From UHGV virus genome UHGV-0119950: DNA of 53,290 nt, one strand, 5' to 3'. Position 1 is the stretch's first letter. The number at the start of each line of letters is the position of its first letter. The notes under the pieces were generated by a model. That model was not told the origin of the DNA. It did not search any database and saw nothing but the letters and a program-made list of their open reading frames with translations. The DNA comes from a virus. Made by a program: the position numbers and the translations under genes. Below, piece by piece: positions 1-20,248 of the stretch.

Positions 1-50
1 AAGCGCAGGCGCAGCGATAAAGGAAAAAGATGACGCAGTAATTTATTCAT
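1..50 (-). CDS. phoQ: sensor kinase PhoQ, first 16 codons only (gene runs off the window)
   Basis: Minus-strand ATG overlaps phoP stop (TAATG); translation [16 protein letters not shown] resembles PhoQ N-terminus as I recall it. Confidence 0.5.
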   Translation of the reverse strand, partial: MNKLLRHLFPLSLRLR

Positions 51-724
51 TAGCGCAGTTCGAACAGGTATCCCTGACCACGGACGGTGGTAATCACATC
101 ATCAGGATATCGCGCCTGAATTTTTTTGCGTAAGCGCCCCATTAATACATCAATGGTATGGCTTTCACGCAGTTCCGCATCCGGGTAGAGCTGTAGCATC
201 AACGAATCTTTGCTGACGACTTTGCCATTATTGCGGATCAGCGTTTCCATAATGGTGTATTCAAACGCCGTCAGTTTTATCACTTCATCATTTACGGACA
301 ATTCACGGCGGGAGAGATCCACCTGAAAAGGCGGAATAGAGATAACCTGCGAGGCCAGGCCGCTGTTGCGGCGCATTAACGCCTGCATACGCGCGACCAC
401 TTCTTCAATATGAAACGGTTTTGTCACGTAGTCGTCGGCGCCTGCGCTCAGCACTTCCACTTTATCCTGCCAGCCTTCACGGGCGGTTAATACCAGAACA
501 GGAAGGGAAACGTCATTGCTGCGCCAGCGGCGGATCAGCGAAAGCCCGTCTTCATCCGGGAGGCCTAAATCGACGATGGCGATGTCCGGCAGATGCTCGT
601 TAAGATAATAATCGGCTTCCTTTGCATCTTCTGCGTCATCAACCTGGTGCCCCAAATCCTGTAATTGAACCTTCAGGTGGTGGCGTAATAAGGCATTATC
701 TTCGACAACCAGTACGCGCATCAT
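50..724 (-). CDS. phoP: response regulator PhoP (OmpR family)
   Basis: 224 aa; near-identical over its length to E. coli/Salmonella PhoP as I recall them ([19 protein letters not shown]...[12 protein letters not shown]); receiver plus winged-helix domains. Confidence 0.95.
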
Positions 725-794
725 CTTTTCTCCCTAAATTAACGGTATTAGTAGTTTAACGCTGATTCTGTGGATTGAAACCAGCGCTATGAAA

Positions 795-2081
795 TTAAAT
801 AACTTTTTTCATACTCCCTCGCCCGTGGGGGCGTCCTGGGGGCAGTGCTGTCGGCATCTGATTGTTCAGCATGTTGACCTGATCCTGGTTCATGTCATCA
901 ATCCACTTGGAGTAAACCTCGTACACCATACGCGCATCTTCATGTCCCATCTGGCTGGCAATGAACGACGGGTTCGCTCCGGCCATCAGCGTCCAGCAGG
1001 CGTATGTGTGGCGCGACTGATATGGATTGCGCTTACGTATACCTGAAAGTTTAGTCCCACGTTTCCAGCCATACGAAATCGAGTCCTTGGAAAAGTAACC
1101 GCCTTTCGTTGATGAGTATGTTGTCGGTGAAAAAACGAAGCGAAGATATTGCTGCTCAGTTTTTCCGATCTCACGATGATGAAACTGAATTTCCTGTTTT
1201 GGACTGTTCCCGGTGATTTCGTATTGCTCCAGCAGAGCATCATGAGCAGGTTGCAGCAACGTTATCGTCCTTATCCCGGCATCTGTTTTAGGGGGTACAA
1301 ATACTCGCTTGTTCGTCAAATTTCTGGATACGTGGATTTCACCTTTTACCAAATCAATATCTTCCCATGCCAGTGCGCATATCTCGCCCGGCCTCATCCC
1401 TGTATGTACCGCAATAATGATGATTAATGCCTGGCTACGGGGAAGGGCGGCTATCAGTGCCTGGTACTCATGAAGTAAAAGTGGGTCGGGATCATTTTTA
1501 GATAACTTGAGTCGCGACACTCCTTCATAAGGAGCATGCAATATAAACTGGCTTCGGTTTGCAAGCTTCAGCATTTCTGATAAAACAGCCATCTGTTTAT
1601 TGACTGTTGAGGGCGCTCGCCCATTTTTGATGCGGTTTGGTATTGAAGGGTTGAAAACTTCCCCGGTCAGGAGTTCTTTGCGGTAATTCAGAATATCTGC
1701 GTGCTGAATATCAACCAGGCGTGTGTTCTCGCCCACTACTCGTTTCAGGGTTTTAACGACTGATGTGATGGATAGTAAAGTGGCTTCAGATACCTCCAGT
1801 GACTTTGTGTCTGTAAAAAAATCACTCAGTTCTTTGAATGTAGAGATCCGTTTTGTGGACGAAAATTTCTTAAGAGCTTTTGATTCCGGGAAACGATCTG
1901 CGTAGTCGAACTTACCGAGTTGTATCTCACTCACAATTGCCGCGCGCAGATTGCCCGCTTTTTTAATGTTGCTACTGTTGACAACCCAACCCTGGAGAAC
2001 TTCGCGGCAACGAATGCCGCGATAGATAAATGTGATCCTGATTTTTCCGTTATGCAGTTCAACACCAGTCGGATATTTCAT
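795..2081 (-). CDS. int: phage integrase, tyrosine recombinase
   Basis: 428 aa; C-terminal catalytic motifs (HTGMRPGE, RHTYACW...GHEDARMVYEVY); followed by xis on same strand; sits at prophage edge. Confidence 0.9.
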   Translation of the reverse strand: MKYPTGVELHNGKIRITFIYRGIRCREVLQGWVVNSSNIKKAGNLRAAIVSEIQLGKFDYADRFPESKALKKFSSTKRISTFKELSDFFTDTKSLEVSEATLLSITSVVKTLKRVVGENTRLVDIQHADILNYRKELLTGEVFNPSIPNRIKNGRAPSTVNKQMAVLSEMLKLANRSQFILHAPYEGVSRLKLSKNDPDPLLLHEYQALIAALPRSQALIIIIAVHTGMRPGEICALAWEDIDLVKGEIHVSRNLTNKRVFVPPKTDAGIRTITLLQPAHDALLEQYEITGNSPKQEIQFHHREIGKTEQQYLRFVFSPTTYSSTKGGYFSKDSISYGWKRGTKLSGIRKRNPYQSRHTYACWTLMAGANPSFIASQMGHEDARMVYEVYSKWIDDMNQDQVNMLNNQMPTALPPGRPHGRGSMKKVI

Positions 2082-2296
2082 TAAGCATCCTGAACTAACT
2101 GATTAATCTTCGGGTAGTTGTACCAAAGCAGACCTTTAGCGTTGTCAGTCTGTCCAAGCGCAGTAAGGTGCTTGAAGTGAACACCTTCAACCCATAGCTT
2201 CAGTCGATAATTTTTAATCTGTCCTTCAGTAAGTCCTGTTCTTTCGGTAAGTCTGGACTCAACAACCCACTCTTCGTTAAAAATTACCTGTGACAT
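2081..2296 (-). CDS. xis: excisionase-like protein
   Basis: 71 aa ORF directly upstream of int with 1-nt overlap; size and position typical of lambdoid Xis. Confidence 0.65.
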   Translation of the reverse strand: MSQVIFNEEWVVESRLTERTGLTEGQIKNYRLKLWVEGVHFKHLTALGQTDNAKGLLWYNYPKINQLVQDA

Positions 2297-2360
2297 GGTT
2301 CACCTCAGGTAACCGGCGCCAGTATAGATGCGCCGGTGTTGTGACATTGATAATTCGTTA

Positions 2361-2600
2361 TCAGGCAATCTGCCCTGGCAGTGCGCGCAGTCGGCGCATA
2401 CCTGTCATTGCGGTGGCGACATAGCTCTTATGTCGGTTAACAACTTCTACCGTCACCTTCACGCCGTCGACCGCCACGGTATAAGTGGTCTTTGTTTTCT
2501 GTCTGCCAAACTCCCCGTAAAGCTCAACATGTTTTGCCAGAGCAGCATCGCACGCCCTGCGCGCCAGCGGAGATTGCTTACTACGATTGATAAGGCGCAT
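2361..2600 (-). CDS. hypothetical early protein
   Basis: 79 aa ORF in early-left operon between recombination genes and xis. Confidence 0.4.
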   Translation of the reverse strand: MRLINRSKQSPLARRACDAALAKHVELYGEFGRQKTKTTYTVAVDGVKVTVEVVNRHKSYVATAMTGMRRLRALPGQIA

Positions 2601-2640
2601 ATAACCCCCTGTGACGGGAGGGCTGACCCTCCCGCCTCCC

Positions 2641-3750
2641 TTAGTTCACGTATTCCGGTTTCATGTCGTCAAGGGTGATGCGGAACTGGTCATACAGTTC
2701 TTCACCCAGATGACGTTTGGCAGCGCTGAGCGTATTTTCAGCTTTAGCGAACATCGCTGCGGCTTCCGGTTCGCTGGGATTTGGAAGTGAGTTGATCACA
2801 GCCTCGACCTTGTTCTGCGCATCGACCTGGTAATAACGTTTCACCGCCTTATTTTTCAGTTCGGTGAACAGCGCTGTGCCCAGCAACGCTTTCTGCGATT
2901 CGATATCCGCGCGGATAGCTTTGGCCTGGTCAACAGAGCTTGCTGTATCAATCCGGTCACGTAGATCGTCTGCAACGGCATCAACATTAGTTGCCGATTC
3001 CTGCGCGCTGGTCGTGGTGCTAACCTCGCCAGTGATTTCCTGTACGCTCATGCGCTGGACTGGCGCAGGGTTAATCTCGCGTTCTTCTCGCTGCTCAACT
3101 TCATCAGGGCTGTACACGCCGAGGATCACTTCCGGGCAGTACAGGCGAGCCCAATATTTAACGCCCAAATAGGCAATTTGCTGTTTAGGATTGGAAACCC
3201 ACAGCGGGGAATTGCGGGTAACAACGCCGGAGAGGTAAAGAGGTTCCCCCCAGGTGATTTCGGATTCACCGCGCAGGATTGCGCCAACCTGGACGAACAG
3301 GCCGATCTCGTCCTCATCCGTCCAGCCACGAACGCGTTCAGTGACGGTGTATTTGCCGTTTTTCCCGTTTTTATCGCGCGTAATTTCCTGTGTTCTGGTG
3401 CAGCGCTCCCAGTCACCTCCATAACGGTAATGAAAACGGCCATGAATGGCACTGGAACTGGCGATTACCGCGTTGACAAGTTGCGCCTCGTATCCAAGAA
3501 CACCGTTAACCAGATGCGTTTTTTGCGCCACCGCGTATGGGTTCATGCCCCACTGCATCGCCTGCATAACGATTGCCATGCAGTCTGCCGGTTTACCTGC
3601 CAGATGCGCCGGGACCGTCACCTGGGAGTCGGCCATCAGATTTGCGAATGCGGTTAACTGGCTCAGCGCCTGTACGTTAAAAATCGCGTTACTGGCTGAA
3701 ATGGTGTTTGGTGCCTGCTGTTCAGTGGTGACAATGCTGGTGTTTTCCAT
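2641..3750 (-). CDS. single-strand annealing protein, RecT/Red-beta family
   Basis: Start moved to ATG with RBS AAGGGGG (MENTSIV...). Segment MAIVMQAMQWGMNPY resembles lambda Bet LLIVANQYGLNPW; sits directly downstream of exonuclease gene. Confidence 0.7.
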   Translation of the reverse strand: MENTSIVTTEQQAPNTISASNAIFNVQALSQLTAFANLMADSQVTVPAHLAGKPADCMAIVMQAMQWGMNPYAVAQKTHLVNGVLGYEAQLVNAVIASSSAIHGRFHYRYGGDWERCTRTQEITRDKNGKNGKYTVTERVRGWTDEDEIGLFVQVGAILRGESEITWGEPLYLSGVVTRNSPLWVSNPKQQIAYLGVKYWARLYCPEVILGVYSPDEVEQREEREINPAPVQRMSVQEITGEVSTTTSAQESATNVDAVADDLRDRIDTASSVDQAKAIRADIESQKALLGTALFTELKNKAVKRYYQVDAQNKVEAVINSLPNPSEPEAAAMFAKAENTLSAAKRHLGEELYDQFRITLDDMKPEYVN

Positions 3751-3760
3751 GATTTCCCCC

Positions 3761-6700
3761 TTATGCCTGTACGCGCAGCGCTTCAAGACGGCGCACATCA
3801 AAATCGTTGAGTTCTTCGGCGTAATCTTCGGTAATCGGCGCTGGCCATTCGCCAGTGTCGAACCCGTTCGCTATGGCGCGCATCGCTTTGCGGTATTCCA
3901 GCATGCCGAGTTCAAGCAGTTCTTCGGATGCCTCGATGATGGCGATCCAGTGGTAGTTCTCGTCTTTGTTGACGAATATCCAGAAAAACTGGTCCAGCGC
4001 TGCGGTTTCGCAGTACATGGCAGCGCTCAGGTGATAATCGCGCTCGATGATTTCCCGGTGCAGTTTGGCGCGTAGGCCTTCCTGCTTGATATTCCACATG
4101 CTGATAGTCTTCAGGTCAGCGCCGATGCGCAGGCCGCCCATGTCGATTTCAAGGTCTGGCCGCACGCGGATTTCCAGCCCGGTTTCCTCATCAATACCGA
4201 AATAGCTCACTTCTACGGCGCGGTTCGGATGCGTCAGCAGCTTCCCGGCGGTCGGGTGATTCAGCAGCGCTTTCTGGATGGCCTGCGCGGTGCTCAACTG
4301 CTGGCGGGTAACCAGAATTTTATCGCCGGGATTTTCTCGCCAAGCGTCAAGCAGCTCGTCGGCAAACACTGTTTCAGGTTTGACGGTTTTCACTGTCTGA
4401 ATCAGATCCGCTTTGGTGCCGGATACTTTCAACGGCTGTGGCTTCTGTGCTTCCTGTGCAACGAGATCAGGATTGATGATCGCCAGTTGCTCAAGCAGCG
4501 CGTCACGGCTTCCGCTGGTTTTCACCTGCGGCGGAAGGGTGGCGTTGTACTCTTTGATGCAGGCCTTCATTGCTGTGGCGGTATGCTTGGTTCCGTTCTC
4601 AATACGCTGGAACTCTTCAGGCAATTGCTCATATGATGCATACGATTCGTCAACGGATGCCCCAAGCGGTAACGGTGCGGGCAGGGTGGTGTTGTACTCT
4701 TCCAGTAGCGCTTTTATATCGTCGGCACTAAGCAGCGGCGGCAGGCTGGCGTTGTGCTCGTCGATAACCGCGCGGATCGTCGCTGTCGTCGTAAGCGCGC
4801 CTTCCGGGATTTCCGGTTCGATGCTGAACTCTTTTTCCAGTTGTTCAGGCTGTAACGCCAGCGCATGCACCAGGTTCCCCATATCCAGGACTTTGGTGCG
4901 TTCTTTCTGGATGGTTTTGGATACGTGGCGCGCCTCGAAATACATCAGCGATACCCGCGCATCTTTTACCATCGTCGAACTGATGCCATTCGCCGCGTGA
5001 TATACCTCGTTCGGTACGCCTTCATAACGCCCCGGCTCGAAGTATTCCGGCCACACTGGCGTTGGTTCTTCCTGTTGCGCTTCTGGCTCAGAATGGCTTG
5101 CAGAATCGTTGTTCTGGCTCACTTCCGACTGATTGTGGTCTACATCGGCTTGCTCGCCGGTATCTGCTTCTTCACCATTCCCCAAATCGCTTTCGCTTGT
5201 ACGCAGCGCATCACCAGTCTGTTTTTCATCACTGACAGTTTCTTGAACCTGCACATCGCTGGTGGTCTCCGCTTCCTGTTTTGTGCCATGAGTTGAGGAG
5301 TTCTGCATTAAAGCGGACACGTCGAAAATGTCGTCTGCAACTTTTTTCACCAGTTCAGGTTGCTCGGTTTGCTGGCTTGTCTCTGTCTTCACCCATTTCG
5401 GATCATTTGGGTCGCTGATACCCGGAACGAATTCACCGCGACCGGCGGCAAGCTGGCGTTCAACCTCTTCGCGGAGTAACTCAAGCGCAGAAGTGACCTT
5501 CTCGGGTGCCGGAGCCATCGGCATTGGCATTGATGAGCGACCGCAGGCGATATCAACGATCATTTCATCCGGGTGAGCGTGATCGGTTTCAGTCATGACA
5601 CGATTGAGATACTCGCGATGACGGAAAGGAGATTTAAACAGTTCCTCTGGCGTTGTTTTTACCGTAGCGACATTGCAGGCGCGGGAGTAATCCATCCCAC
5701 CAGGCATTTCTTCAAACAATTTGCAGGTCGCAATAAATTCATCGAGTACGTTATCTTCCCCTGAGCGGGAGAGATTCATAATGGCGTTGGCTTCAACATC
5801 GATCTCGAAGGAAGGGCTGTAAATATCGAACTCTTTGTTACGGGCGATCAGGCCAAGTGCTATTTCATATTCGAGCCCGGTTTTTGTCAGTGGAGTAAGA
5901 CGGTCAGTCTTATTACCGCCACCGGCGTTCGCGCCAGATGGTGTGCGATTAATTTCAGATACACGATTACCTTTGCACCACTCTTTAACGAGCAGCCCGC
6001 GATCAATATGAGGGGTATCGAACCATGTTTTCAGAAACTGGATAACGCTTGCCAGCTCAGGGATTTTGCCATCGGCAGGAAACACGCTCTTAACAGCATT
6101 TACCGCTTTATGGATATCGTGTTCAATGGCCTTTTTGAATGGTTCAACATTCTCAGCCGCAAGTAAAAGGTTCTGGACATATGAATTATCTGTGTCCATT
6201 TCCAGAGCGAGAATTGCTTTTTTCTGCTCTGCGTCGACATGATAGAGATACTCGCCATCGCCAATATGTTGAGCCAGAACACGATGACGGAAGGGCATTG
6301 TTGCCACAACGGTTAACTGAGGGTGTTCAGGTAGATCGCCATTGTCTTCAGTTGACGCCTGATCGTGCTGGATAATTTCGCCAGTTTCGGTATCGACAAC
6401 TTCTTCATTGCCAAAATCTTCCGTGTGATCTTCCAGCACTTCACCTGTTTCGGTATCAACACCATCAACGATACGCTGACGGGCGACGGCAACGGCCTCA
6501 GAAGAGGGCAACGTAACACCGGGGATCTGTACCCAGGTCATGTTGTCTTTGCCGAGTTGGTAGAAATCGCAGAACGTTAAGCTGAGTTCGCCTTCTGGCG
6601 GAAGCTCGTTAACGACGGGGAAATTAGTGGCAACAGCTTTAAAATAATCTTTCAGCTTTGCGCCGGATTTAATCAGGAGATAATCCAGTGTGGCATTTGC

Positions 6701-6796
6701 CGCTTCAAAATCATCGCTGCACCAGAGAACTGCATCTTTATGGCCAGATGATTTCTTTGCTTTGCGGACTAAAAATACAGGATTAGTTCCACTCAT
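3761..6796 (-). CDS. exodeoxyribonuclease VIII-like (RecE-like) with long acidic central region
   Basis: About 1011 aa from ATG with RBS GAGGA (MSGTNPVFLV...); large size, nuclease-like C-terminus and pairing with RecT-like gene. Track ORF start at 7003 would overlap upstream gene. Confidence 0.7.
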   Translation of the reverse strand: MSGTNPVFLVRKAKKSSGHKDAVLWCSDDFEAANATLDYLLIKSGAKLKDYFKAVATNFPVVNELPPEGELSLTFCDFYQLGKDNMTWVQIPGVTLPSSEAVAVARQRIVDGVDTETGEVLEDHTEDFGNEEVVDTETGEIIQHDQASTEDNGDLPEHPQLTVVATMPFRHRVLAQHIGDGEYLYHVDAEQKKAILALEMDTDNSYVQNLLLAAENVEPFKKAIEHDIHKAVNAVKSVFPADGKIPELASVIQFLKTWFDTPHIDRGLLVKEWCKGNRVSEINRTPSGANAGGGNKTDRLTPLTKTGLEYEIALGLIARNKEFDIYSPSFEIDVEANAIMNLSRSGEDNVLDEFIATCKLFEEMPGGMDYSRACNVATVKTTPEELFKSPFRHREYLNRVMTETDHAHPDEMIVDIACGRSSMPMPMAPAPEKVTSALELLREEVERQLAAGRGEFVPGISDPNDPKWVKTETSQQTEQPELVKKVADDIFDVSALMQNSSTHGTKQEAETTSDVQVQETVSDEKQTGDALRTSESDLGNGEEADTGEQADVDHNQSEVSQNNDSASHSEPEAQQEEPTPVWPEYFEPGRYEGVPNEVYHAANGISSTMVKDARVSLMYFEARHVSKTIQKERTKVLDMGNLVHALALQPEQLEKEFSIEPEIPEGALTTTATIRAVIDEHNASLPPLLSADDIKALLEEYNTTLPAPLPLGASVDESYASYEQLPEEFQRIENGTKHTATAMKACIKEYNATLPPQVKTSGSRDALLEQLAIINPDLVAQEAQKPQPLKVSGTKADLIQTVKTVKPETVFADELLDAWRENPGDKILVTRQQLSTAQAIQKALLNHPTAGKLLTHPNRAVEVSYFGIDEETGLEIRVRPDLEIDMGGLRIGADLKTISMWNIKQEGLRAKLHREIIERDYHLSAAMYCETAALDQFFWIFVNKDENYHWIAIIEASEELLELGMLEYRKAMRAIANGFDTGEWPAPITEDYAEELNDFDVRRLEALRVQA

Positions 6797-6920
6797 TATT
6801 TGATCCTCAATTCGTGTAGAATGGAGGCGCCTTAATGGCACCTCGGTTTTACCAGGTGATGTCCGGTGTAACTTTGGTCGGTGCCACCGGACGGAAGGCC
6901 CACCCTGTGTGGGCTTTCGC

Positions 6921-7208
6921 TTAATGAACAGTTCTGAAAACTTTTTCTGAGTAATCGAGTTTGTAGCTGCGGTAGTTGCCAAAACCGGCGTTATCGCCAT
7001 CACTTACTTTCACGGACAACATTGAAATTGCCTCTACAGCACAAAGAGGACAGTCGAACTTGCCGAATACATAGCCACCGTCAAGAATGACCGTGACCGC
7101 GCCCGTTTCGGCTGAATGAATAACGCCTGATACTTTCTTCTCGCAGTTGAATACAGCCAATTCTTTATTCACTGCTTTCAGGTTCATTTCGATTTTTGCG
7201 ATTTCCAT
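6921..7208 (-). CDS. hypothetical early protein
   Basis: 95 aa ORF in early-left operon. Confidence 0.45.
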   Translation of the reverse strand: MEIAKIEMNLKAVNKELAVFNCEKKVSGVIHSAETGAVTVILDGGYVFGKFDCPLCAVEAISMLSVKVSDGDNAGFGNYRSYKLDYSEKVFRTVH

Positions 7209-7295
7209 AAAACTTCTCCGGTTGTTAAATTCAGGGTGTAAGAATCCGCGCCAAATTTATGGCGAATTTTTTATTTCATATTTCAGGACTGCTGG

Positions 7296-7454
7296 TTAAC
7301 TTTCGTGCGCCATCTGATCGTATTCAGCGCATTGCTTTGAGCAGTATTCTTTTTCTTTGTTGGCAAGCCGGTTGCCATTGCGATAGAAAAGGATGCTCTT
7401 TACTTCTTTGCCTTCTTCAACGGGTTTGCGGCAGTAACCGCATTCTTTCTGCAT
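7296..7454 (-). CDS. small zinc-ribbon protein (CxxC...CxxxC), 52 aa
   Basis: Not in ORF track (<60 aa). RBS GAGGAGGGG upstream of ATG; translation MQKECGYCRKPVEEGK...YCSKQCAEYDQMAHES. Confidence 0.4.
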   Translation of the reverse strand: MQKECGYCRKPVEEGKEVKSILFYRNGNRLANKEKEYCSKQCAEYDQMAHES

Positions 7455-7463
7455 TACCCCTCC

Positions 7464-7649
7464 TCAGATGCTTGCTGGCAGCTCTCCGTTGTGAATGATT
7501 CCCTCAACAGGCCAGCACTCACCATTAACCTTTTGCTCGACAGCTGCGGCCTGGCATTCCTGCTGGTTGTCATATACACCGAGAATCACATCCTGAAAGT
7601 CACCGTTGGTCATTGCGACCGTTAATACCAGTGCGAATAGTTCCCCCAT
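7464..7649 (-). CDS. hypothetical small protein
   Basis: 61 aa ORF; start overlaps stop of upstream gene (TGATG), GGAGG upstream. Confidence 0.4.
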   Translation of the reverse strand: MGELFALVLTVAMTNGDFQDVILGVYDNQQECQAAAVEQKVNGECWPVEGIIHNGELPASI

Positions 7650-7777
7650 CAGTGAAGAGTCCTCCCGATTGCAGCAGCATAAATACGTTTTGCTTCTTCC
7701 CAGTCTTTAATGCTGTGGTGAGCCACTGCGAAGGATGCCTTGCGCTGTGCCTCCCGGACTTGCTGCTTGTTAATCAT
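7649..7777 (-). CDS. hypothetical small protein (42 aa, MINKQQVREAQRK...)
   Basis: Internal ATG of track ORF 7649..7954; ATG overlaps stop of upstream gene (ATGATTAA), indicating translational coupling. Confidence 0.35.
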   Translation of the reverse strand: MINKQQVREAQRKASFAVAHHSIKDWEEAKRIYAAAIGRTLH

Positions 7778-8114
7778 CGTTATCCTCCAGGTGCCCGTTA
7801 TCGCGAAGCCAGCTAATGACCTCGTCAGGAGAAAGACGATCCAGAATTTCCGGTAACTTGCTGTTATTGTCAGCCCAGTCGATGTAATCCGGCAGGTCGA
7901 TAGCGGCGAACAGCACATCGCTTTCGATTTCTTCCAGCACGTCATCCACTTCAACGCCGCGAATTTCAGTGTTCACAAAATCGCGATAACCGCTGGTTGA
8001 AACGTCAACTCCCTGCGCCTTGAGATCTAAATCAATTTTCATTTTCACCCTCTGCTTGCCGTTGTCGCCCGGCTGGCGGAACGTTTGATACCTGCTGCGC
8101 GTTAACTCATCCAC
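7770..8114 (-). CDS. hypothetical protein, first gene of early-left operon
   Basis: 114 aa acidic protein; N-terminal Arg content too weak to call an N-like antiterminator. Confidence 0.45.
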   Translation of the reverse strand: MDELTRSRYQTFRQPGDNGKQRVKMKIDLDLKAQGVDVSTSGYRDFVNTEIRGVEVDDVLEEIESDVLFAAIDLPDYIDWADNNSKLPEILDRLSPDEVISWLRDNGHLEDNDD

Positions 8115-8164
8115 CTCATCACCATCTTCATACGCCTGGTGCGGCTACTTCGTGGGCGTCCTGC

Positions 8165-8256
8165 CTGGGTGGTCGTGTTGCTGTGATATTGATTAAATCA
8201 CTGGTTTATAGTTGTGTCAACTTTGAATTGATGTTTGGTGTAAATTTTAGGTTTAT
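8165..8256. promoter_or_regulatory. putative left operator/promoter region (OL-like)
   Basis: Divergent intergenic region; GATATTGATTAAATCA (8185-8200) nearly matches GAATATTGATTGAAATA in the cI/cro intergenic region. Confidence 0.35.
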
Positions 8257-8526
8257 ATGTTGGGAGAGGGAGCGTGTGTTATGCTCACAAAAACATCAAT
8301 TGGCGAGGGCTGGGTGATGGATTACGAAGAACTGGCGCAACTGCGCTATCAGGAAATGTGCCGGATTGTGGGGGATGTCGTTTTTGCGATGGTGGCTGAA
8401 GGGCATGAAACCAAAAGAGTGGCTATAGCTGACGTGATACGAACGGAGATATCGAAGGGGCTGGATAAGTGGGATGCTGACCAGATTCAGGTTATGGAAC
8501 TGGCAGTGAAGTTTCTGGAAGAGTAG
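8257..8526 (+). CDS. hypothetical protein transcribed divergently from early-left operon
   Basis: 89 aa ORF (possible later start at MLTKTS); followed by strong terminator. Confidence 0.45.
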   Translation: MLGEGACVMLTKTSIGEGWVMDYEELAQLRYQEMCRIVGDVVFAMVAEGHETKRVAIADVIRTEISKGLDKWDADQIQVMELAVKFLEE

Positions 8527-8528
8527 GG

Positions 8529-8562
8529 CAATAAAAAACCCGGCTCGGTGGCCGGGTGTTTT
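8529..8562. terminator. bidirectional rho-independent terminator
   Basis: Hairpin CCCGGCTCGGTGGCCGGG flanked by A-run upstream and T-run downstream; ends both the 8257..8526 gene and the minus-strand cassette. Confidence 0.6.
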
Positions 8563-8954
8563 TAGTTACACGCGAATTTTATACCATCTAGTGTTGTGTT
8601 TTTAAGGATGTCTTCGGCATAAAATTTGAAGTAAACCCTCATCAAAGATGAAAAATACCAAGTATATTCCTTTAAAAAATCCTCATTGAGATTTTCGCTT
8701 TTTGGATAAGAGAAAATCATTCTAATGTCGATTTTTAGAGAAAAATCTGGTTTTTCACTGCCTTTCCTGAACCCTTGAGCGATGGGGCTTGCTGAAACTT
8801 TAATTGATGACATTGATGGATCGCCACCACCGACTTCAAAATCTAAGGCGCCATATACAACCTTGATCGTGCCCTCACCAGGTGTAAGCATGGTTTGATT
8901 GAACTCCACGTTTAGAATCGCAGATTCAACCATGTTGATATCGTTAGGCAACAT
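8562..8954 (-). CDS. hypothetical protein, cassette gene 3 of 3
   Basis: 130 aa; AT-rich; start overlaps stop of upstream gene by 11 nt; no recognisable motif. Confidence 0.5.
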   Translation of the reverse strand: MLPNDINMVESAILNVEFNQTMLTPGEGTIKVVYGALDFEVGGGDPSMSSIKVSASPIAQGFRKGSEKPDFSLKIDIRMIFSYPKSENLNEDFLKEYTWYFSSLMRVYFKFYAEDILKNTTLDGIKFACN

Positions 8955-9363
8955 TTATCTCATAATCCCTGTTTTGAGGCTTAATGGTAATCTTGATGAC
9001 TGGGCTTGGTTCGTCCATGAAACTATTTAAATTCATAACGTAGTGCTTATGAGCAGGTATAACAGGATGAGAAACATCACATCCATTCTTCAGGATTACT
9101 ACTTTTGCTTCGGCACCTAGAGCGTAGGAAATATCGGAGAGGGTTTTTAGTGTCATGTTCCTAGTTCCATCTAGCAACTGAGAAACATGCGAAGCCGACT
9201 TGCCAAGTTTTTTAGCAAGTTCACGCTTAGTTATACCTGTATCCTGCATAGCTAAAAGGATGTCTTCTGTAGTATTGAACACTAATCGTTCGGAAGCCAT
9301 CTCTCTATCACTAATGTATGGAAAACCAAAAATTTCTTCTGCGAAAGTCTTATCAGTAGTCAT
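8944..9363 (-). CDS. XRE-family HTH DNA-binding protein (antitoxin-like), cassette gene 2 of 3
   Basis: 139 aa; helix-turn-helix segment ITKRELAKKLGKSASHVSQLLDG; overlaps both neighbours. Confidence 0.6.
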   Translation of the reverse strand: MTTDKTFAEEIFGFPYISDREMASERLVFNTTEDILLAMQDTGITKRELAKKLGKSASHVSQLLDGTRNMTLKTLSDISYALGAEAKVVILKNGCDVSHPVIPAHKHYVMNLNSFMDEPSPVIKITIKPQNRDYEINVA

Positions 9364-9781
9364 CTAAACCTCTCTCGATTCTCTCCCAGTTGTTACAAAC
9401 TTTTTGGACATCAGAATCGCTTAAATCATCAAAATCTTTGTAGATGTAATGACTCATAAAATAAGTCATTGATACTCTCTCCGACTCCCAGTAGTACCCT
9501 CGAATAGGTATCTTCTTTATAGCCCAGAAATTTTTTTTAGGTTTGCCATTGTAAGAAGGCAGTATTCCTTCCTTTCTGACGCTGAGATCTGGAGTTCTTT
9601 TACCTGATGCCAGGCGCTCTATTTGTAGTCTAAGCTTGACCATCATGGCTTTTTGCTTCTTAGCAGGAGTAACACTCAGTATCGCATCAGCTAGAGTTTT
9701 TAGCGCTCCATTACAATGGGTTACAGTGAAGCAAGCGCCCTTAAAAGTATGTTGAACCATCCACTTATCCATAGTTAACAT
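9353..9781 (-). CDS. hypothetical protein, possible RelE/HigB-like toxin fold, cassette gene 1 of 3
   Basis: 142 aa; AT-rich; precedes an HTH gene in toxin-then-antitoxin order; toxin assignment is only by arrangement and loose pattern; start codon uncertain (no clear RBS). Confidence 0.45.
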   Translation of the reverse strand: MLTMDKWMVQHTFKGACFTVTHCNGALKTLADAILSVTPAKKQKAMMVKLRLQIERLASGKRTPDLSVRKEGILPSYNGKPKKNFWAIKKIPIRGYYWESERVSMTYFMSHYIYKDFDDLSDSDVQKVCNNWERIERGLDDY

Positions 9782-9875
9782 ATATATTAACTCACAATTT
9801 GCAAGTGAGCCACCTTCATCTTATAGAGATAATCCGAAAAGCATGATGGTTAGCAATTCATGTCCTTATCAACTC

Positions 9876-10031
9876 TCAAAGGGACATACCGATAACGGCA
9901 TTAACCACACTTGACGCCATAAACACGCCGCCAACGATGAAGCTGGCCTGGTTCTTCCTGGTAGCGCCAAGAGTCAACAGAACCACTGAAAGGGCAAAGA
10001 AAGGTATCGCGATTATGCTGAACGTGTTCAT
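9876..10031 (-). CDS. small hydrophobic membrane protein, 51 aa
   Basis: Not in ORF track. Translation MNTFSIIAIPFFALSVVLLTLGATRKNQASFIVGGVFMASSVVNAVIGMSL; two hydrophobic stretches; directly downstream of repressor gene on same strand. Confidence 0.4.
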   Translation of the reverse strand: MNTFSIIAIPFFALSVVLLTLGATRKNQASFIVGGVFMASSVVNAVIGMSL

Positions 10032-10043
10032 GTTGACCTCAAG

Positions 10044-10463
10044 TTATTGCGATTCTCCGTCACCCTTAATCCGTCGCCCCATGTACTTCGCGTACAGCTC
10101 GTCGAGCTCCTTCAGTCGCAGAGATACGATCCGCAACATGTTCTGCTGCTCTTCTTCCGGCAGCTGGCGATAGAGTTCCAGCAGGCGCTGCTCGTCAGGC
10201 TTCATACCATCTTTCTCGCCGACATCTTCCCCGAGCAGCCAGGCGACCGAAACACCAACAGCATCGGCTATAGCCAGTGCTGATTTTTTGCTAATAACGC
10301 CTTTTTTAAACCAGCTATTGACCGCCTGAGGCGAGACTCCGGCTATTCGCGCCATATCTGCTTTGGTAATGCCTCTGGCATAGACCTCGTTGAGTCGCGC
10401 TATCAATGCTTTGTTGGGTTCTTCTTTTCTCATTCTCTCATTGTAAATGGTTAGTTTACACAC
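10044..10463 (-). CDS. prophage repressor, CI-like HTH, no S24 peptidase domain
   Basis: 139 aa; HTH (ITKADMARIAGVSPQAVNSWFKKG); divergent from cro-like gene; too short for a LexA-like cleavage domain. Confidence 0.75.
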   Translation of the reverse strand: MCKLTIYNERMRKEEPNKALIARLNEVYARGITKADMARIAGVSPQAVNSWFKKGVISKKSALAIADAVGVSVAWLLGEDVGEKDGMKPDEQRLLELYRQLPEEEQQNMLRIVSLRLKELDELYAKYMGRRIKGDGESQ

Positions 10464-10534
10464 TCAATAAATTGAATATTGATTGAAATATAAATCTGTG
10501 GTTTACTTTCTTCGTTGATAGTTAGGAGAAGAAA
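10464..10534. promoter_or_regulatory. OR-like operator/promoter region between repressor and cro-like gene
   Basis: 71-bp divergent intergenic region with AT-rich repeated TTGATTGAAAT/ATTGAATATTG motifs. Confidence 0.45.
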
Positions 10535-10768
10535 ATGACAGCACTTGATAAAGCAATTAAGGCCGCTGGTTCAGCGAGAAAGCTAAGCATGGCACTTGGT
10601 GTAACCAGTATGTCAATTAGCCATTGGAAACATCGCGACAGAGGCATTGTGCCGCCAGATTACATATTAAAAATTCACAGCATAACCGGTGTTACTCCCC
10701 ACGAATTGCGCCCTGATCTGTATCCGAACCCAACGGATGGATTACCGGCGCAGGAAGCGAGGGCGTAA
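10535..10768 (+). CDS. cro: Cro-like HTH regulator
   Basis: 77 aa; HTH (SARKLSMALGVTSMSISHWKHR); divergent from repressor. Confidence 0.7.
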   Translation: MTALDKAIKAAGSARKLSMALGVTSMSISHWKHRDRGIVPPDYILKIHSITGVTPHELRPDLYPNPTDGLPAQEARA

Positions 10769-10770
10769 CC

Positions 10771-11313
10771 GTGCATTCAATTTCATTTCAACAAAATACC
10801 GGGTTTCCTCCAGCCACGATGATAAATCGCAATCAGCCTGATCCGGCGGATAAGCATGACCAGATTCGGGCTGCCGTTCGTGCGTGGTCGGCATCGCTGG
10901 ACAACCAGGACGTAGTCGCCGGGATCATCGTTGAAGAATGGGAACGGCAGGGCGGCGCCGGGCTGGATTTTCCTGACGACCTGAGCCGTAAGCGGCAGAA
11001 GCTTTTCCGCTGGCTGGACAGCGACACCGGATATGCGCGCGAAAACATCCGCCAGCTGACTCCGGCAATCCTGGCTGTTATGCCGCTGGAATTTCGTGGG
11101 CGCCTTATCGGACAGGATTGTTTCATGACGCGTTTTGCAGCGATGGAGAAGGAAATCAGCGAGGCGAAACAGGCCGTAATGTTGAATGCGCCAAAGCATC
11201 AACTGGTGAAAGAGGTCAGGGAAGGGATTGAGCATCTGCTGAATATGTTGCCGGATGATGCTGTTGTTCAGGTTCTGAGTGGTATCGCGGCCATAGCGCC
11301 GGGTGTCATGTGA
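10771..11313 (+). CDS. CII-like regulatory protein (possibly CP76-type)
   Basis: 180 aa ORF immediately after cro-like gene (GTG start); position matches lambdoid cII; family call from memory. Confidence 0.45.
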   Translation: MHSISFQQNTGFPPATMINRNQPDPADKHDQIRAAVRAWSASLDNQDVVAGIIVEEWERQGGAGLDFPDDLSRKRQKLFRWLDSDTGYARENIRQLTPAILAVMPLEFRGRLIGQDCFMTRFAAMEKEISEAKQAVMLNAPKHQLVKEVREGIEHLLNMLPDDAVVQVLSGIAAIAPGVM

Positions 11314-11576
11314 GGTTACCAGATGAATCATTTGGAGTTCATAGAAAAGCATGTCCGGGAAGAGTTGATCCGACAGGGCTTCACCGTAGCGGTGGCTCAG
11401 GGGGGGCATTTCAGGCCGTCGATATGTACAAGCGAATGAGCCAGGCAAGCAGAAAGGGGAGGATTTTTGATGATGTTTTACGTCACGCGAAATTGTGGGC
11501 AGAAAAACAAACATTACCGGCTGATCGGTTTGATTCAAAACGGGCTAAACGGGGCAGGCAACAGGGCTTGTTCTGA
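11310..11576 (+). CDS. hypothetical basic protein
   Basis: 88 aa ORF between CII-like and replication genes. Confidence 0.3.
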   Translation: MRLPDESFGVHRKACPGRVDPTGLHRSGGSGGAFQAVDMYKRMSQASRKGRIFDDVLRHAKLWAEKQTLPADRFDSKRAKRGRQQGLF

Positions 11577-11695
11577 AAGGGTGAAGACCGCTGTGCTCGA
11601 ACACAGACGGCCTTCGGGTGCAATTAGTTGCGTACTCATTGCGAGGTCATTATGACAAAGAGTTTTTCAAAACACCAGGCAAGGGAGGCATAGCT

Positions 11696-12694
11696 ATGTC
11701 GAATGTCGCCTACGCCGATTTTGCGGCGCGTACCGCCGTCAGGAGCAACCGGATGGAAAACCAGAAGACCGGATTCATCCCGTTGTACCGGAGTGTACTC
11801 AAGCAGCCCTGGTCAGAAGATGTTTACCTGCGTACGTTGTGGGATAACCTGCTTTTGGGCGCTGCCAGCCAGCCATACACAGCGAGCTTTAAAGGTCGCC
11901 AATGGCCGCTACAAACCGGACAACTGGTGACCACGGCGGCCGATCTGGGCCTGAAACTACGTGACAGAAAAGGCAACCCAACAAGCCGTGATGCTGTTGA
12001 GAGAATGCTGACATTTTTTGTGCGCGAAGGGATGATTTCCATTGAGGGGGAACGGCAAAGAGGGCGTGTGATCACGATCTCAAATTATGCCGAATATGCT
12101 CAAAAAATGGACAATTTACCCGCACAAACTTCCGCACATACCAGCGCACATATGACCGCACATGGCGAAGCCAGTAACGGCGCGGGTTTGGCGGCAGGTA
12201 GCGCACATGAAAGCGCACATACATCCGCACAAACAAGCGCACATCATGAACAATATATATTAAATACTAACGTATTTAATGTACGTCAGAGAATTTCCAA
12301 AGTTGTTCCTGATGCAGCAGTCCAGACTCCGAAAGGTGACAAGTGGGGGACATCTGACGATCTCCGTTGCGCAGAGTGGATGCTGGCACTGCGTGACATC
12401 ACCAAACCATCCCTGAAAAAACCGAACATGGCTGGCTGGGCGAATGACATACGCCTGATGCGCCAACTGGACGGACGCACCCACAAAGAGATTTGTGAGT
12501 TGTTCAGATGGGCCTGCAAAGACTCGTTCTGGTACAAAAATATTCTCTCTCCCGCAAAGCTCCGCGCCAAGTGGGACACGTTAACCCTTCACCGTGAAGA
12601 CACTACCCGCAAGCCACGCGCAGATGTCAGCGCAAGCAAATCCGAAACTGGCCCGCACTGGAACAGTGCTGAAGCATGGGAGAAATTTTTATGA
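11696..12694 (+). CDS. replication initiator, O-like (replisome organiser N-terminal domain)
   Basis: ATG with RBS AAGGGAGG; N-terminus fits replisome-organiser pattern; gene contains iterons and AT-rich tract; followed by P-like gene. Confidence 0.65.
   Translation: MSNVAYADFAARTAVRSNRMENQKTGFIPLYRSVLKQPWSEDVYLRTLWDNLLLGAASQPYTASFKGRQWPLQTGQLVTTAADLGLKLRDRKGNPTSRDAVERMLTFFVREGMISIEGERQRGRVITISNYAEYAQKMDNLPAQTSAHTSAHMTAHGEASNGAGLAAGSAHESAHTSAQTSAHHEQYILNTNVFNVRQRISKVVPDAAVQTPKGDKWGTSDDLRCAEWMLALRDITKPSLKKPNMAGWANDIRLMRQLDGRTHKEICELFRWACKDSFWYKNILSPAKLRAKWDTLTLHREDTTRKPRADVSASKSETGPHWNSAEAWEKFL
12121..12290. repeat. putative origin of replication: two clusters of four 12-bp iterons (CGCACA plus 6 nt) followed by AT-rich tract
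   Basis: CGCACA recurs at 12-bp period at 12121-12168 and 12202-12249, then CAATATATATTAAATACTAACGTATTTAATGTACG; encodes the TSAH peptide repeats in the O-like protein. Confidence 0.5.
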
Positions 12695-13386
12695 CCCCGG
12701 ATCTTTATCGTGCAATTCAGAATCGCGACAGCGAAATGCTATCGCGCATGGCTGGAGACTCTTACGACGGACGTAAGGTTGTTAACAGTGACGCTGAAAA
12801 GCTGGTGGATATGCTTTTTGAAAATCTCATGCAGGTATTTCCGGCATCCACTCAGACGAACCTACGTACTGGCGATGATATTCGCGTTGCAAAGCAGCAA
12901 TGGATCGCCGCTTTTGCTGAGTCAGGCATCACCTCCCGTGAGCAACTTTCCGCCGGAATGCAGAAAGCCCGATCCAGTCAGTCACCGTTCTGGCCGTCGC
13001 CGGGTCAGTTTATTTCGTGGTGCCGTGAGGGGAGTGGCGCGCTGGGAGTCAGTGTGGACGACATCATGAGCGAATACTGGCGCTGGCGGAAACTTGTTTT
13101 TCGCTATCCGACGAGTGAGCAGTTCCCCTGGAGGGATAAAAACCCGCTGTATTACCACGTCTGCCTGGAGCTGCGCCGTCGTGGAACGGAGGGGCAACTC
13201 AGCGAAAAGGAACTTATCCGGGCCGCTGGCGACATCCTGCATGACTGGGAAAAGCGTGCTCTTGCTGGCAAGCCCATACCACCTGTTCGTCGCGCTATAG
13301 CCGCGCCTTCGCAGGATCGTGGGCCAACACCAGCCGAGCTGTTAATGGCGAAGTACAAGCAGCGTAAAGACGCCGGGCTGATTTAA
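12691..13386 (+). CDS. replication protein P-like helicase loader
   Basis: Matches lambda P as I recall it (FPAS, RQWVLAFRENGIT vs QQWIAAFAESGIT, PFLPSPGQFVAWCRE vs PFWPSPGQFISWCRE); ATG overlaps O-like stop. Confidence 0.8.
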   Translation: MTPDLYRAIQNRDSEMLSRMAGDSYDGRKVVNSDAEKLVDMLFENLMQVFPASTQTNLRTGDDIRVAKQQWIAAFAESGITSREQLSAGMQKARSSQSPFWPSPGQFISWCREGSGALGVSVDDIMSEYWRWRKLVFRYPTSEQFPWRDKNPLYYHVCLELRRRGTEGQLSEKELIRAAGDILHDWEKRALAGKPIPPVRRAIAAPSQDRGPTPAELLMAKYKQRKDAGLI

Positions 13387-13402
13387 CGGGAGGAGAATAA
13401 CG

Positions 13403-13714
13403 ATGGCAAGCAAATCACTGTGGGCAATTGTTGATTTCCTTCGGGAAAACCAGACCATCACGCCGCGACAGGTTCAGAACCTGCTGGGATGTGACTGCAA
13501 GAAATCTCACAACCTGTTGCTTCACCTGACGCGCAAAGCGGTAGTGATCCGTACAGGCGAGCCGCATCACCCGGTCTATTCGCTGTTGCCCGGCGGAGAA
13601 CTGAATATCAAGCGCTTCAAATCGACCGTGAGAAAAAACATGGTCTCATCCGTTTGCCGAAACAGTGCGGCGATGAAGCGAATTTTAATGGTTTGGGGGA
13701 GGGCATCAGCATGA
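13403..13714 (+). CDS. hypothetical protein
   Basis: 103 aa ORF with RBS GGGAGGAG. Confidence 0.4.
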   Translation: MASKSLWAIVDFLRENQTITPRQVQNLLGCDCKKSHNLLLHLTRKAVVIRTGEPHHPVYSLLPGGELNIKRFKSTVRKNMVSSVCRNSAAMKRILMVWGRASA

Positions 13715-14280
13715 AATCAACGGTAGAAACAAAAATCATTGAGTTAGTGAAGTCAGGGCATGAGCTGGCGAAAGAACTGCATTGTGCTGAGTCTGCCGCG
13801 CTGGTGAACTATCTGGCAACGCAGCTTGAAGTGCATTTTGCCCGTAGCAATGCGCTGGCTGCAAAACTGAGCATGATTAACGACCTCATGGATGCCGCTG
13901 AACAGGCCAACAAACTGGCGCAGGAAGCAACGGAAAAACTGGTACAGGAGCGTGACGCTCTGGCTGCGGAACTAAGCGCAGTTGAGTCCATTCACAACGA
14001 TGCAGTATTCATCACTGACGAGCACTATGAGCAATGCCCGCGAGAAGTTCAGAAGATAGTTCGATCGCTGGCTGTGTTGCAGATACCTGCTTACGACTCT
14101 TTCCTGGATGAAGTGCGGGCGCATGACCTTAACGCCTTCATTCAGCATCACAGTGCAGAACTGGATGCGCATATTAAAAACGGTGGTGAGCAGTTCGACG
14201 AAAAATCAGTACGCATCAGAGACATCATCGTCTCAGTTCGCTTGTTCATGGATCAACTTCGCAAAGGCGGTGCAGCATGA
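13711..14280 (+). CDS. hypothetical coiled-coil protein
   Basis: ATG at 13711 with RBS GGGGAGG, overlaps upstream stop (ATGA). Confidence 0.45.
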   Translation: MKSTVETKIIELVKSGHELAKELHCAESAALVNYLATQLEVHFARSNALAAKLSMINDLMDAAEQANKLAQEATEKLVQERDALAAELSAVESIHNDAVFITDEHYEQCPREVQKIVRSLAVLQIPAYDSFLDEVRAHDLNAFIQHHSAELDAHIKNGGEQFDEKSVRIRDIIVSVRLFMDQLRKGGAA

Positions 14281-14825
14281 AACCAACATTAACGGCAGAA
14301 TTGCGAAGGGAACTGCATAAATTGGCAACTGACGCGCACGAGTTGGGCATCATCAAGCGGTATTCGAAGGGACTAGAGGCGCAGAGAAAATTTTACGCTG
14401 CTGCAACCCCTCTGGTTATTCGCGCGCTGCTGGATGAGCTGGAAGCGCTCCAGTCTTTCCGTACCGCATTCAATGAGTGGCACGATAAAACAGAATGGGT
14501 GCAGACGGATAAGCGGCTTGACGTCATTAAGCCGTGGGGTAAGCACCGCGCCGACGTTCTGAAGCTCTATATCGATCACCTGGAATCAAAGCCGGAAGCC
14601 AAAGAAGAACAGCGAGCTAACTGGTTTCATATGGCGCAGAAGTTAGGCGAGAATTTGGACGCCGCAGAGAAGCGCATAGCAGAACTGGAGGCGAAATTAG
14701 CTAACCCCGTGCTGCTCCCGAAAACAAACGGCTACTGGACTGAGCAAGAAAAGGCGTATGAAGAAGCCATTATGTTCGCTAAGCGGCAGGTTCGTCTGGC
14801 TGGATTCAGTGTGGAGGACATGTAA
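14277..14825 (+). CDS. hypothetical protein (Ead/Ea22-like early protein)
   Basis: 182 aa helical ORF; start overlaps upstream stop. Confidence 0.4.
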   Translation: MKPTLTAELRRELHKLATDAHELGIIKRYSKGLEAQRKFYAAATPLVIRALLDELEALQSFRTAFNEWHDKTEWVQTDKRLDVIKPWGKHRADVLKLYIDHLESKPEAKEEQRANWFHMAQKLGENLDAAEKRIAELEAKLANPVLLPKTNGYWTEQEKAYEEAIMFAKRQVRLAGFSVEDM

Positions 14826-15067
14826 TGGCTATTTTTATGGAAGTACGTTGTGCAGGTCGCGGTGATGTTGATGGTTGCCATTCTGACCAGAACGCCGAAC
14901 CAATGACGACAGCACATGAAAGCGTTAAGGGTGTTTCTACGGCGCTGAAATTTCTTAAAGACGATTCACTCAATAACGGCTGGGTGTTGCACAAAGGTGA
15001 GCTTTATTGCCCGGCATGCGCCGAAGCAAAAGCATGGGACGCCGCTGGCATCGGTAAGGGGGAGTGA
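14825..15067 (+). CDS. hypothetical protein with C-terminal CPAC motif
   Basis: 80 aa ORF. Confidence 0.35.
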   Translation: MAIFMEVRCAGRGDVDGCHSDQNAEPMTTAHESVKGVSTALKFLKDDSLNNGWVLHKGELYCPACAEAKAWDAAGIGKGE

Positions 15068-15069
15068 TA

Positions 15070-15254
15070 TGAAACGAGAAATTATTACCGTCACCCGTCC
15101 TGGAAACTGCTGCCCAGGGCATGACAAATACCCATGCGAAAAATACAGAAACAGACGCTCTGTTCGCCAGCGCGCTATCGGTATTAAAAAAGAACATCGC
15201 CATGTGCGCAGGAATATGCGTCAGGAGTTGCTTTCAGTTATAGGTGAGGACTAA
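15070..15254 (+). CDS. hypothetical small Cys-rich basic protein
   Basis: 61 aa from internal ATG (MKREIITVTRPGNCCPGHDKYPCEKYR...). Confidence 0.35.
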
Positions 15255-15257
15255 CCC

Positions 15258-15536
15258 ATGACCACTATTACCAGAGAGCTTATCGCCGCATATCTTAACG
15301 GCGAAGTTAAAACGCTCACTAACAGCGAACAGAAAGAGCTGGCGCGTATCGCGCTGGCATCGCTGGACGATGAAATAAAACTACGCCCTGTAGGGGTTAT
15401 GAGCGAGTCAGCCTTTCATAGGCTTGAACGCAGCGAGTCACGTTTTATTGCGCTGTGGCCTCGTCCTGGTATCTTTTTGCCGCGCCCACGTCCAGACGAT
15501 GGCGTTATCGTTTATGCAAAGGTTGAGGGTGCGTGA
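15258..15536 (+). CDS. hypothetical protein
   Basis: 92 aa ORF in tightly packed early operon. Confidence 0.4.
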   Translation: MTTITRELIAAYLNGEVKTLTNSEQKELARIALASLDDEIKLRPVGVMSESAFHRLERSESRFIALWPRPGIFLPRPRPDDGVIVYAKVEGA

Positions 15537-15772
15537 TGGCTATTGCATCAGGATATTCCATTGACGCCTATTGCGACTGCGAACAATGCGTAAATAACAT
15601 CGACCCAGTTGGTCGTTGGTGCCGTCAAGAAATGATCAGCGCAACCGGAGAGTCTTACGCAGAATGCGCTGCGCTAATCCGTAGCTATGGCTGGAAGTTA
15701 AGTCGCAACAAGATGCATGCGTTGCACCTGGGCATAAAAAACCGAAATCATGGAGTAAATTATGACAACTAA
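15536..15772 (+). CDS. hypothetical Cys-containing protein
   Basis: 78 aa; ATG overlaps upstream stop. Confidence 0.4.
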   Translation: MAIASGYSIDAYCDCEQCVNNIDPVGRWCRQEMISATGESYAECAALIRSYGWKLSRNKMHALHLGIKNRNHGVNYDN

Positions 15773-19160: not shown

Positions 19161-19166
19161 TGTATA

Positions 19167-20231: not shown

Positions 20232-20248
20232 GAACATGGAATGAACTC

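Follow-up and report, generated by a model that had tools for sequence, protein, structure and literature searches.

A Rac-like prophage that splits the phoP promoter of a probable Citrobacter koseri host

The virus genome UHGV-0119950, analysed here over the whole stretch of 53,290 nt (the window), carries near its start an intact phoP, the response regulator gene of the PhoPQ two-component system, followed by a Rac-like lambdoid prophage that begins in the promoter of this gene. PhoPQ governs Mg2+ homeostasis, remodelling of lipid A and lipopolysaccharide (LPS), resistance to antimicrobial peptides and polymyxin, and virulence in enteric bacteria. Comparison with empty and occupied sites of Citrobacter koseri showed that the two halves of the PhoP-activated phoP promoter are now at opposite ends of the prophage, the -10 and leader beside phoP and the PhoP box (the activator site) beside purB.

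The phoP-integrase junction and its attachment sites

The integrase gene (int) and phoP are co-oriented, both on the minus strand, and the start of phoQ overlaps the phoP stop at ~50. An earlier note on this DNA had placed the integrase stop (795) 70 bp from the phoP ATG, and the gap between both genes (725..794) is indeed exactly 70 bp. The features found at this end are the following.

50..724, minus strand: phoP (response regulator), intact, 224 aa (list of open reading frames, ORFs; Pfam Response_reg and Trans_reg_C)
725..756, minus strand: 5' leader of phoP with its ribosome-binding site, native DNA on the bacterial side of attL (same sequence as in the empty sites L001, L008 and L010)
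757..771, minus strand: attL core, ACAGAATCAGCGTTA in minus-strand reading (three-way alignment of attB, attL and attR)
765..770, minus strand: -10 hexamer of the PhoP-activated phoP promoter, CAGAAT, which is CATAAT in the empty site (alignment of Escherichia coli and the C. koseri empty site)
772..794, minus strand: conserved non-coding int-proximal phage arm, in place of the PhoP box and the -35 (consensus of 46 distinct occupied sequences)
795..2081, minus strand: tyrosine integrase of the Rac IntR type, 428 aa (ORF list; Pfam PF12167 and PF00589; PHROG integrase)
826..832 and 837..843, minus strand: two candidate Int arm-type sites, GCCCCCA, inside the 3' end of int
2081..2296, minus strand: excisionase, 71 aa (PHROG 539, E = 6e-23; Pfam DUF1233 in an identical gene)
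772..53290: Rac-like lambdoid prophage body, ~52.7 kb, running off the window (PHROG and Pfam; contig L012 continues to purB)

The integrase matched Pfam PF00589 with 64 bits (cut-off 27) and PHROG 1, integrase, with E = 5e-66. Within the protein, residues 221-393 could be aligned with the structure of Tn1549 Int, and the GMR, RHT, GH and terminal Y-containing motifs are part of this alignment; arm binding is predicted from the Arm-DNA-bind_2 domain (PF12167, 89 bits) together with the repeats described below. The excisionase gene (xis) ends overlapping the int start. The host is very probably C. koseri, since the exact PhoP is encoded on many contigs, one of which, L008, is the chromosome of C. 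koseri MPUCK001 (AP023452.1; PMC7729419). In all the C. koseri loci PhoQ adjoins the identical PhoP protein, and three of them (L001, L008 and L010) have an empty purB-phoP spacer of 170 bp.

The alignment with prophage-free relatives that the earlier note had proposed could be made with these empty loci and the occupied ones of the same species, and it defined attB, attL and attR. Contig L012 has an identical umuC, matches the final 190 bases of the window without a difference and continues for ~380 bp to the purB stop, providing the right junction. The empty sites hold a single copy of the core, ACATAATCAGCGTTA (attB, 15 bp), while the 15-bp ACAGAATCAGCGTTA is identical in attL (757..771) and in attR (L012), with a weaker likeness on to 747; the segment 747..756 resembles the int-distal arm of the phage at 7 of 10 positions (attL vs attR). 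Read in the purB-to-phoP direction, attB is ...CCGGTTTACGAAATGTTTATCCCCGCCGCAACATAATCAGCGTTAAACTACTAATACCG...ATGATG, attR is ...CCGGTTTACGAAATGTTTATCCCCGCCGAAACAGAATCAGCGTTAGACTGCGAATGAAAAAAA... and attL, on the minus strand of the window, is ...GTTATTTAATTTCATAGCGCTGGTTTCAATCCACAGAATCAGCGTTAAACTACTAATACCG...ATGATG. A 15-mer repeat is not by itself significant in 53 kb; this one is meaningful because it lies exactly at the break of the empty-site homology at both ends. Native DNA extends from phoP to ~771-773 and phage DNA starts at 772. Homology to E. coli ends at 773, with 81.6% identity over phoP. The prediction that attL would be found inside 725-795 was thus borne out by the shared core. 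Its confinement to this interval holds for the core and fails for the functional att region, as the arm-type repeats at 826..832 and 837..843 lie within the 3' end of int. The other prophage end is outside the window, ~190-205 bp past position 53290, with the attR core at the window-equivalent positions 53481..53495, giving a prophage of ~52.7 kb.

These comparisons also bear on the possibility that 725-795 holds an undamaged native phoP promoter and the real att site is elsewhere, at a tRNA or further upstream, the outcome that the earlier note had set against its own proposal. Approximately 48 bp upstream of the phoP ATG are indeed native and include a -10-like hexamer. Homology with the empty site, however, stops at ~771-773, no tRNA that could serve as target was found within the 53,290-nt window, and the PhoP box, missing throughout the window, is present at the other prophage end, beside purB. 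An intact native promoter is therefore not present in this interval, and the comparison of empty site, attL and attR rules this explanation out, leaving it practically no chance.

The third base of the -10 hexamer provided a marker within the core. It is T in all the empty sites and G or C in C. koseri lysogens (position 768 of the window; L002, L004, L005 and L012), sometimes at both junctions: L002 has T at attR and C at attL, L004 and L005 have C at both, and the window lysogen has G at both. These variants bracket the strand exchange to A-N-AATCAGCGTTA, within the core. The presence of G or C at this base suggests heteroduplex repair, or repeated integration and excision converting the host promoter base.

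The motif GCCCC[CT]A appears twice in the int-proximal arm and four times in the int-distal arm, which is outside the window, i.e. six copies across ~250 bp of the reconstructed attP (-72 to +174 from the core start) vs seven in the 53-kb window on both strands. The repeats are kept in relatives and are good candidates for arm-type Int sites. Junctions reading int-proximal arm, core and int-distal arm, and hence attP-like, were found in L119 (3895..3912) and in Citrobacter braakii L101, confirming the reconstructed att layout. As parts of tandem arrays they also give indirect support to integration and excision by the predicted integrase. L099 and L101 belong to the same contig of C. braakii ATCC 51113, ~12-18 kb apart, and the internal attP-like junctions (L099/L101 and L119) indicate putative tandem prophages or remnants at the phoP site. 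In viral contigs, neither the exact predicted attP nor a shorter attR/attP pattern of the C. koseri phage had a match; a degenerate att pattern retrieved eight attR junctions and one attP-like junction, from relatives, plus two chance matches (L118 and L121).

An inverted repeat is also present on the minus strand, with one half in the core (GAATCAGCGTT, 758..768), the other in the phage arm (AGCGCTGGTTTC, 777..788) and a loop of 8 nt, and it is kept in relatives. The corresponding hairpin in the int 3' untranslated region has no U tract and is not significant (z = -1.4). The repeat could be a site for Int or an accessory protein, or an RNA stability element. Its halves were also considered as core-type Int sites flanking the overlap, and this was rejected, the 8 bp between them being phage-specific and not found in attB.

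Empty and occupied phoP loci

The same layout of integrase stop, ~70 bp and phoP recurs in 71 occupied loci, which between them have 46 distinct upstream sequences, and int upstream of phoP is also present in 14 named species-representative genomes, so that the adjacency of both genes is not due to chance. In C. koseri, intact prophages with the same or a near-identical integrase are located at this spot in L003, L006, L007 and L011, and assorted remnants are found at exactly the same spot in L002, L004, L005 and L009; overall, ~8 of 21 contigs of the species are occupied, in a small sample that is biased to long contigs. The IMG/VR database contributed 80 loci with integrases 84-99% identical, and in every one of them that reaches past the int stop the same conserved arm, the same core and phoP follow, the host leader varying among several sequences.

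Among the species-representative genomes, phoP has the integrase or a fragment of it immediately upstream in Citrobacter werkmanii, C. pasteurii, C. braakii, C. portucalensis, C. meridianamericanus, C. youngae and Citrobacter sp. ANG330, in Enterobacter mori, E. genomosp. O, Enterobacter sp. ECC-175 and E. cloacae M-7, and in Lelliottia wanjuensis and two Scandinavium genomes. Judging from these alignments, the core of the phoP promoter is a family-wide integration site in at least four genera. At megablast sensitivity, no member of the integrase family turned up among 5,426 complete E. coli genomes, and the core-equivalent sequence of E. coli differs (ACATAATC-GCGTTACACTA).

Tiny fossil remnants were seen immediately upstream of phoP in E. 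cloacae M-7 (L112, 1796..2686) and in Scandinavium sp. (L113, 1995..2679, and L114, 1885..2702). What is left of the prophage there is int codons ~155-190 and the 3' end of int, together with the phage arm and core, in a purB-phoP spacer of 685-891 bp from which the native PhoP box and attR have been deleted. The three share one internal deletion joint, suggesting common ancestry, and their genomes appear to be without a canonical phoP operator altogether.

The phoP promoter on the two sides of the prophage

The phoP promoter of Salmonella is a class II promoter of 'architecture I', with a single direct PhoP box located 12 nt upstream of the -10 and overlapping the -35, and a leader of 34 nt (PMC3335776, Table 1). 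The box of this architecture is defined as (T/G)GTTTA-N5-(T/G)GTTTA ending 12 nt before the -10 (PMC3335776). The empty site of C. koseri has a perfect PhoP box, GGTTTACGAAATGTTTA (GGTTTA-CGAAA-TGTTTA), then 12 nt, TCCCCGCCGCAA, and then CATAAT, and it aligns with the E. coli purB-phoP region. The layout of GGTTTACGAAATGTTTA, 12 nt and CA(T/G/C)AAT was found in empty attB and in attR, and not at the attL promoter before phoP (725..795). By alignment, the start site of phoP would be near 758, and the 15-bp att core would span from 1 nt upstream of the -10 to about +1 of the phoP promoter P1, placing recombination inside the core promoter. In E. coli, phoPQ is transcribed from P1, activated by PhoP-P, and from the constitutive P2 (PMC3750022); we assume that the displaced upstream DNA includes the latter.

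attR has kept the promoter intact, from the box through the 12-nt spacer and the -10 to the start region, and this promoter faces into the prophage, with the PhoP box and all the DNA upstream of it now ~52.7 kb away from phoP. As the earlier note had proposed, the phage end occupies the phoP promoter region: the PhoP box has been displaced, and an altered -10, the start-site region and the leader have stayed. The 23 nt of phage arm contain TTCATA (788..793), a weak candidate for a -35 at 17 bp from the -10; most relatives have TTCATG there. Between int and phoP we found no consensus sigma-70 promoter (the hybrid of TTCATA, 17 bp and CAGAAT is below the scan threshold), no PhoP box with up to 2 mismatches and no intrinsic terminator, the lone hairpin having no U tract. 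Within 150 bp upstream of the -10, the best approximation to a PhoP box in the 71 occupied loci has 3-5 mismatches of 12, vs 0 in the empty sites. Most lysogens retain a perfect CATAAT (46 distinct sequences), and the window lysogen has CAGAAT. The int and xis genes and the whole early-left operon are oriented toward phoP. An Rfam search of 1..3000 gave nothing credible.

We consider it likely that the prophage, integrated by its tyrosine integrase, has separated the P1 activator site from the core promoter of phoPQ, with loss of autoregulation and phoPQ driven by read-through or by a weak hybrid promoter. The split of the promoter is directly observed, and from this structure we infer the change in regulation. 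Integration leaves phoPQ with the weakened -10 (CAGAAT) and its leader, the PhoP box staying at attR, and the lysogen would lack PhoP-dependent positive autoregulation of phoPQ. Transcription of phoPQ would come by read-through from int and the co-oriented early-left operon, as there is no terminator between int and phoP, and the weak hybrid promoter (TTCATA, 17 bp, CAGAAT) may contribute to it. Prophage induction would then produce a burst of phoPQ transcription, and excision would restore the native phoP promoter. The importance of the box is known from Salmonella, where a mutant deprived of nothing but the PhoP box of the phoP promoter did not grow in low Mg2+ (PMC2650801). Positive autoregulation is thus needed there for growth in low Mg2+, and it is reportedly required for the transcription surge upon activation (Shin et al. 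2006, as cited in PMC2650801).

Several points weigh against this reading. The regulatory effect on phoPQ in lysogens is deduced purely from structure. With ~8 of 21 C. koseri sites occupied and remnants in several species, the insertion seems well tolerated, which argues that phoPQ may be adequately expressed, and the highly conserved phage arm could hold an unrecognised promoter or regulator site. The displacement of P2 in C. koseri is assumed from its position in E. coli, and the exact overlap is less certain, since attL and attR of the lysogen both have G where the empty sites have T.

Alternatively, the insertion could be neutral, the phage arm rebuilding a promoter, possibly responsive to PhoP through a GGTTTC half-site 6 nt upstream of the -10 or through a 17-mer within int, so that phoPQ is expressed as in non-lysogens. 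The arm is strongly conserved over the 46 distinct sequences, most lysogens have the perfect CATAAT with a -35-like TTCATA or TTCATG at 17 bp, and the high occupancy suggests a low fitness cost. On the other hand, none of the 71 loci has a PhoP box with up to 2 mismatches within 150 bp of the -10, a lone half-site 6 nt from the -10 matches none of the five functional PhoP architectures (PMC3335776), and the hybrid promoter is under the consensus threshold. The 17-mer, TGTTTATTGACTGTTGA (1594..1610), resembles a PhoP box with 1 mismatch and lies on the plus strand, antisense inside int. Of 66 distinct integrase genes, 59 keep it with 1 mismatch, and it is also present in the tiny remnants, the latter being in part a matter of ascertainment because the scan used the overlapping peptide TVNKQMAV. 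The motif coincides with the most conserved peptide of the integrase, PSTVNKQMAV, and its conservation is thus explicable without regulation; it is ~830 bp from the -10 of phoP and has no -10 hexamer 12 nt downstream. For these three reasons it was rejected as a replacement operator, and we regard a neutral insertion as rather unlikely.

PhoP-box-like motifs with up to 2 mismatches are more frequent in the whole window (25) than in dinucleotide shuffles (10.75 +/- 3.56), none of which reached 25. Another copy with 1 mismatch is at 44980..44996 on the minus strand.

A different view of the locus would be active lysogeny, in which the prophage acts as a reversible switch that, in certain conditions, excises without lysis, restores the autoregulated phoPQ promoter and integrates again. 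The int and xis genes are intact, as are both att sites; a precise excision would recreate attB in its native architecture, and empty and occupied sites are found within one species. This polymorphism among strains is equally explained by ordinary gain and loss, however, and the prophage carries a full lytic gene set, making such a switch very improbable.

The prophage indeed looks complete. Its genes include recT, a RecE-like exonuclease, replication genes, terminase, tape measure and tail fibre. In a DNA search against sequenced phages, only the recT region was similar, to Klebsiella phages, and the closest integrases of sequenced phages, Rac-type IntR proteins of E. coli phages such as Rac-SA53, are ~50% identical. 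The immunity region (10044..10768) is Rac-like, with a 139-aa helix-turn-helix (HTH) repressor on the minus strand and a divergent YdaS/Cro-like gene of 77 aa on the plus strand. The repressor is devoid of a peptidase domain, so that induction may not take place by classical RecA-mediated self-cleavage.

At the right end, next to attR, the window contains the following cargo genes (50177..53240; PHROG and Pfam).

50177..51262, minus strand: O-acetyltransferase
51544..51972, plus strand: umuD
51975..53240, plus strand: umuC

The promoter at attR would run antisense through umuC and umuD and then in sense into the O-acetyltransferase. In four relatives (L124, L126, L127 and L128) the first ORF after attR is a co-oriented gene of the SRAP family (PF02586), ~335 bp downstream, in L002 it is a co-oriented acyltransferase, and in other relatives the first genes are convergent. 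Capture of the cargo by the promoter at attR was consequently rejected as a universal trait, since the first ORF is co-oriented in approximately half of the attR sites and convergent in the rest, including the window. PhoP control of phage cargo is possible, judging by these arrangements, and would not be uniform across relatives. The O-acetyltransferase is of the O-antigen type, and the relatives of Enterobacter type carry the SRAP (YedK-like) gene first after attR. With umuDC and SRAP at the same end, genes of DNA-damage tolerance recur at the right end of these prophages.

In a broader scenario, this phage family would have evolved to hijack the PhoPQ feedback, with phoPQ driven by the phage, basal in the lysogen and surging on SOS induction, the attR promoter putting cargo under PhoP and excision resetting the system. 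We put it forward as a tentative possibility that we do not favour. If true, the hijack would alter responses to Mg2+, antimicrobial peptides and polymyxin as well as virulence in Citrobacter and Enterobacter, and the cargo controlled by PhoP would be SRAP or the O-antigen acetyltransferase (sense) and umuDC (antisense).

Significance and relation to known systems

The removal of the PhoP box by a common prophage family would create differences in the PhoPQ circuit from strain to strain among its hosts, C. koseri, the C. freundii group and the Enterobacter cloacae complex, which cause opportunistic infections. Surveys of gene content, which record only the presence of phoP and phoQ, would miss such differences. 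Empty and occupied sites provide natural, isogenic-like pairs in which to test the contribution of autoregulation, and the effect predicted for PhoPQ feedback can be tested directly and has clinical relevance. Full-text searches aimed at this, in a library without most subscription journals, turned up no account of a prophage located at the phoP promoter or in the purB-phoP interval.

The mechanism is ordinary integration of the lambda/Rac type, with the catalytic domain, the arm domain and its repeats, the excisionase and the duplicated core all present. As in the Rac prophage of E. coli K-12 (IntR, recET, racR/ydaS), the integrase, ~50% identical, has Arm-DNA-bind_2 and a catalytic domain, and the left arm has the order int, xis, recT, recE-like exonuclease, short HTH repressor and YdaS/Cro-like gene. 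The integration site of Rac is the E. coli gene ttcA (ydaO), whereas the present family targets the core of the phoP promoter. With lambda it has in common an arm-binding tyrosine integrase, an adjacent excisionase, a core of ~15 bp shared by attP and attB, arm repeats on both sides and int beside attL. Early-left read-through into flanking host genes upon lambda induction ('escape synthesis') is classical. The attB of lambda is, however, in a neutral spot between gal and bio, while the present core is a functional part of the promoter of a global regulator, and the arm sites differ in sequence and number (here 2 + 4 copies of GCCCC[CT]A).

As for e14 and phage 21 at icd, and for phages that target tRNA genes, attB is in a constrained host sequence kept across genera, and the phage arm abuts a functional element of the host. 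Those phages bring along a second copy of the gene end that they displace, by which function is kept, whereas here the box and the -35 are replaced by an arm without a PhoP box. Listeria phi10403S (comK) and SpyCIM1 (mutL) resemble the present case in that a prophage interrupts a regulatory or expression unit of the host that excision would restore. In both of them reversible excision without lysis has been shown, and it is coding sequences or operons that are interrupted; here a promoter is split, and the case is known from sequence. The rewired phoP of Yersinia is similar in having no PhoP box immediately upstream of phoP (PMC2650801), but there autoregulation persists by way of a PhoP-dependent promoter in front of the gene that precedes phoP and is co-transcribed with it (PMC2650801), while here the box is ~52.7 kb off. 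What is new is the target, an activator-dependent class II promoter of a global two-component system that is split to opposite prophage ends without replacement of the operator. It represents a new attB for a known Rac-type integrase and a further case of prophage insertion into the regulatory DNA of the host.

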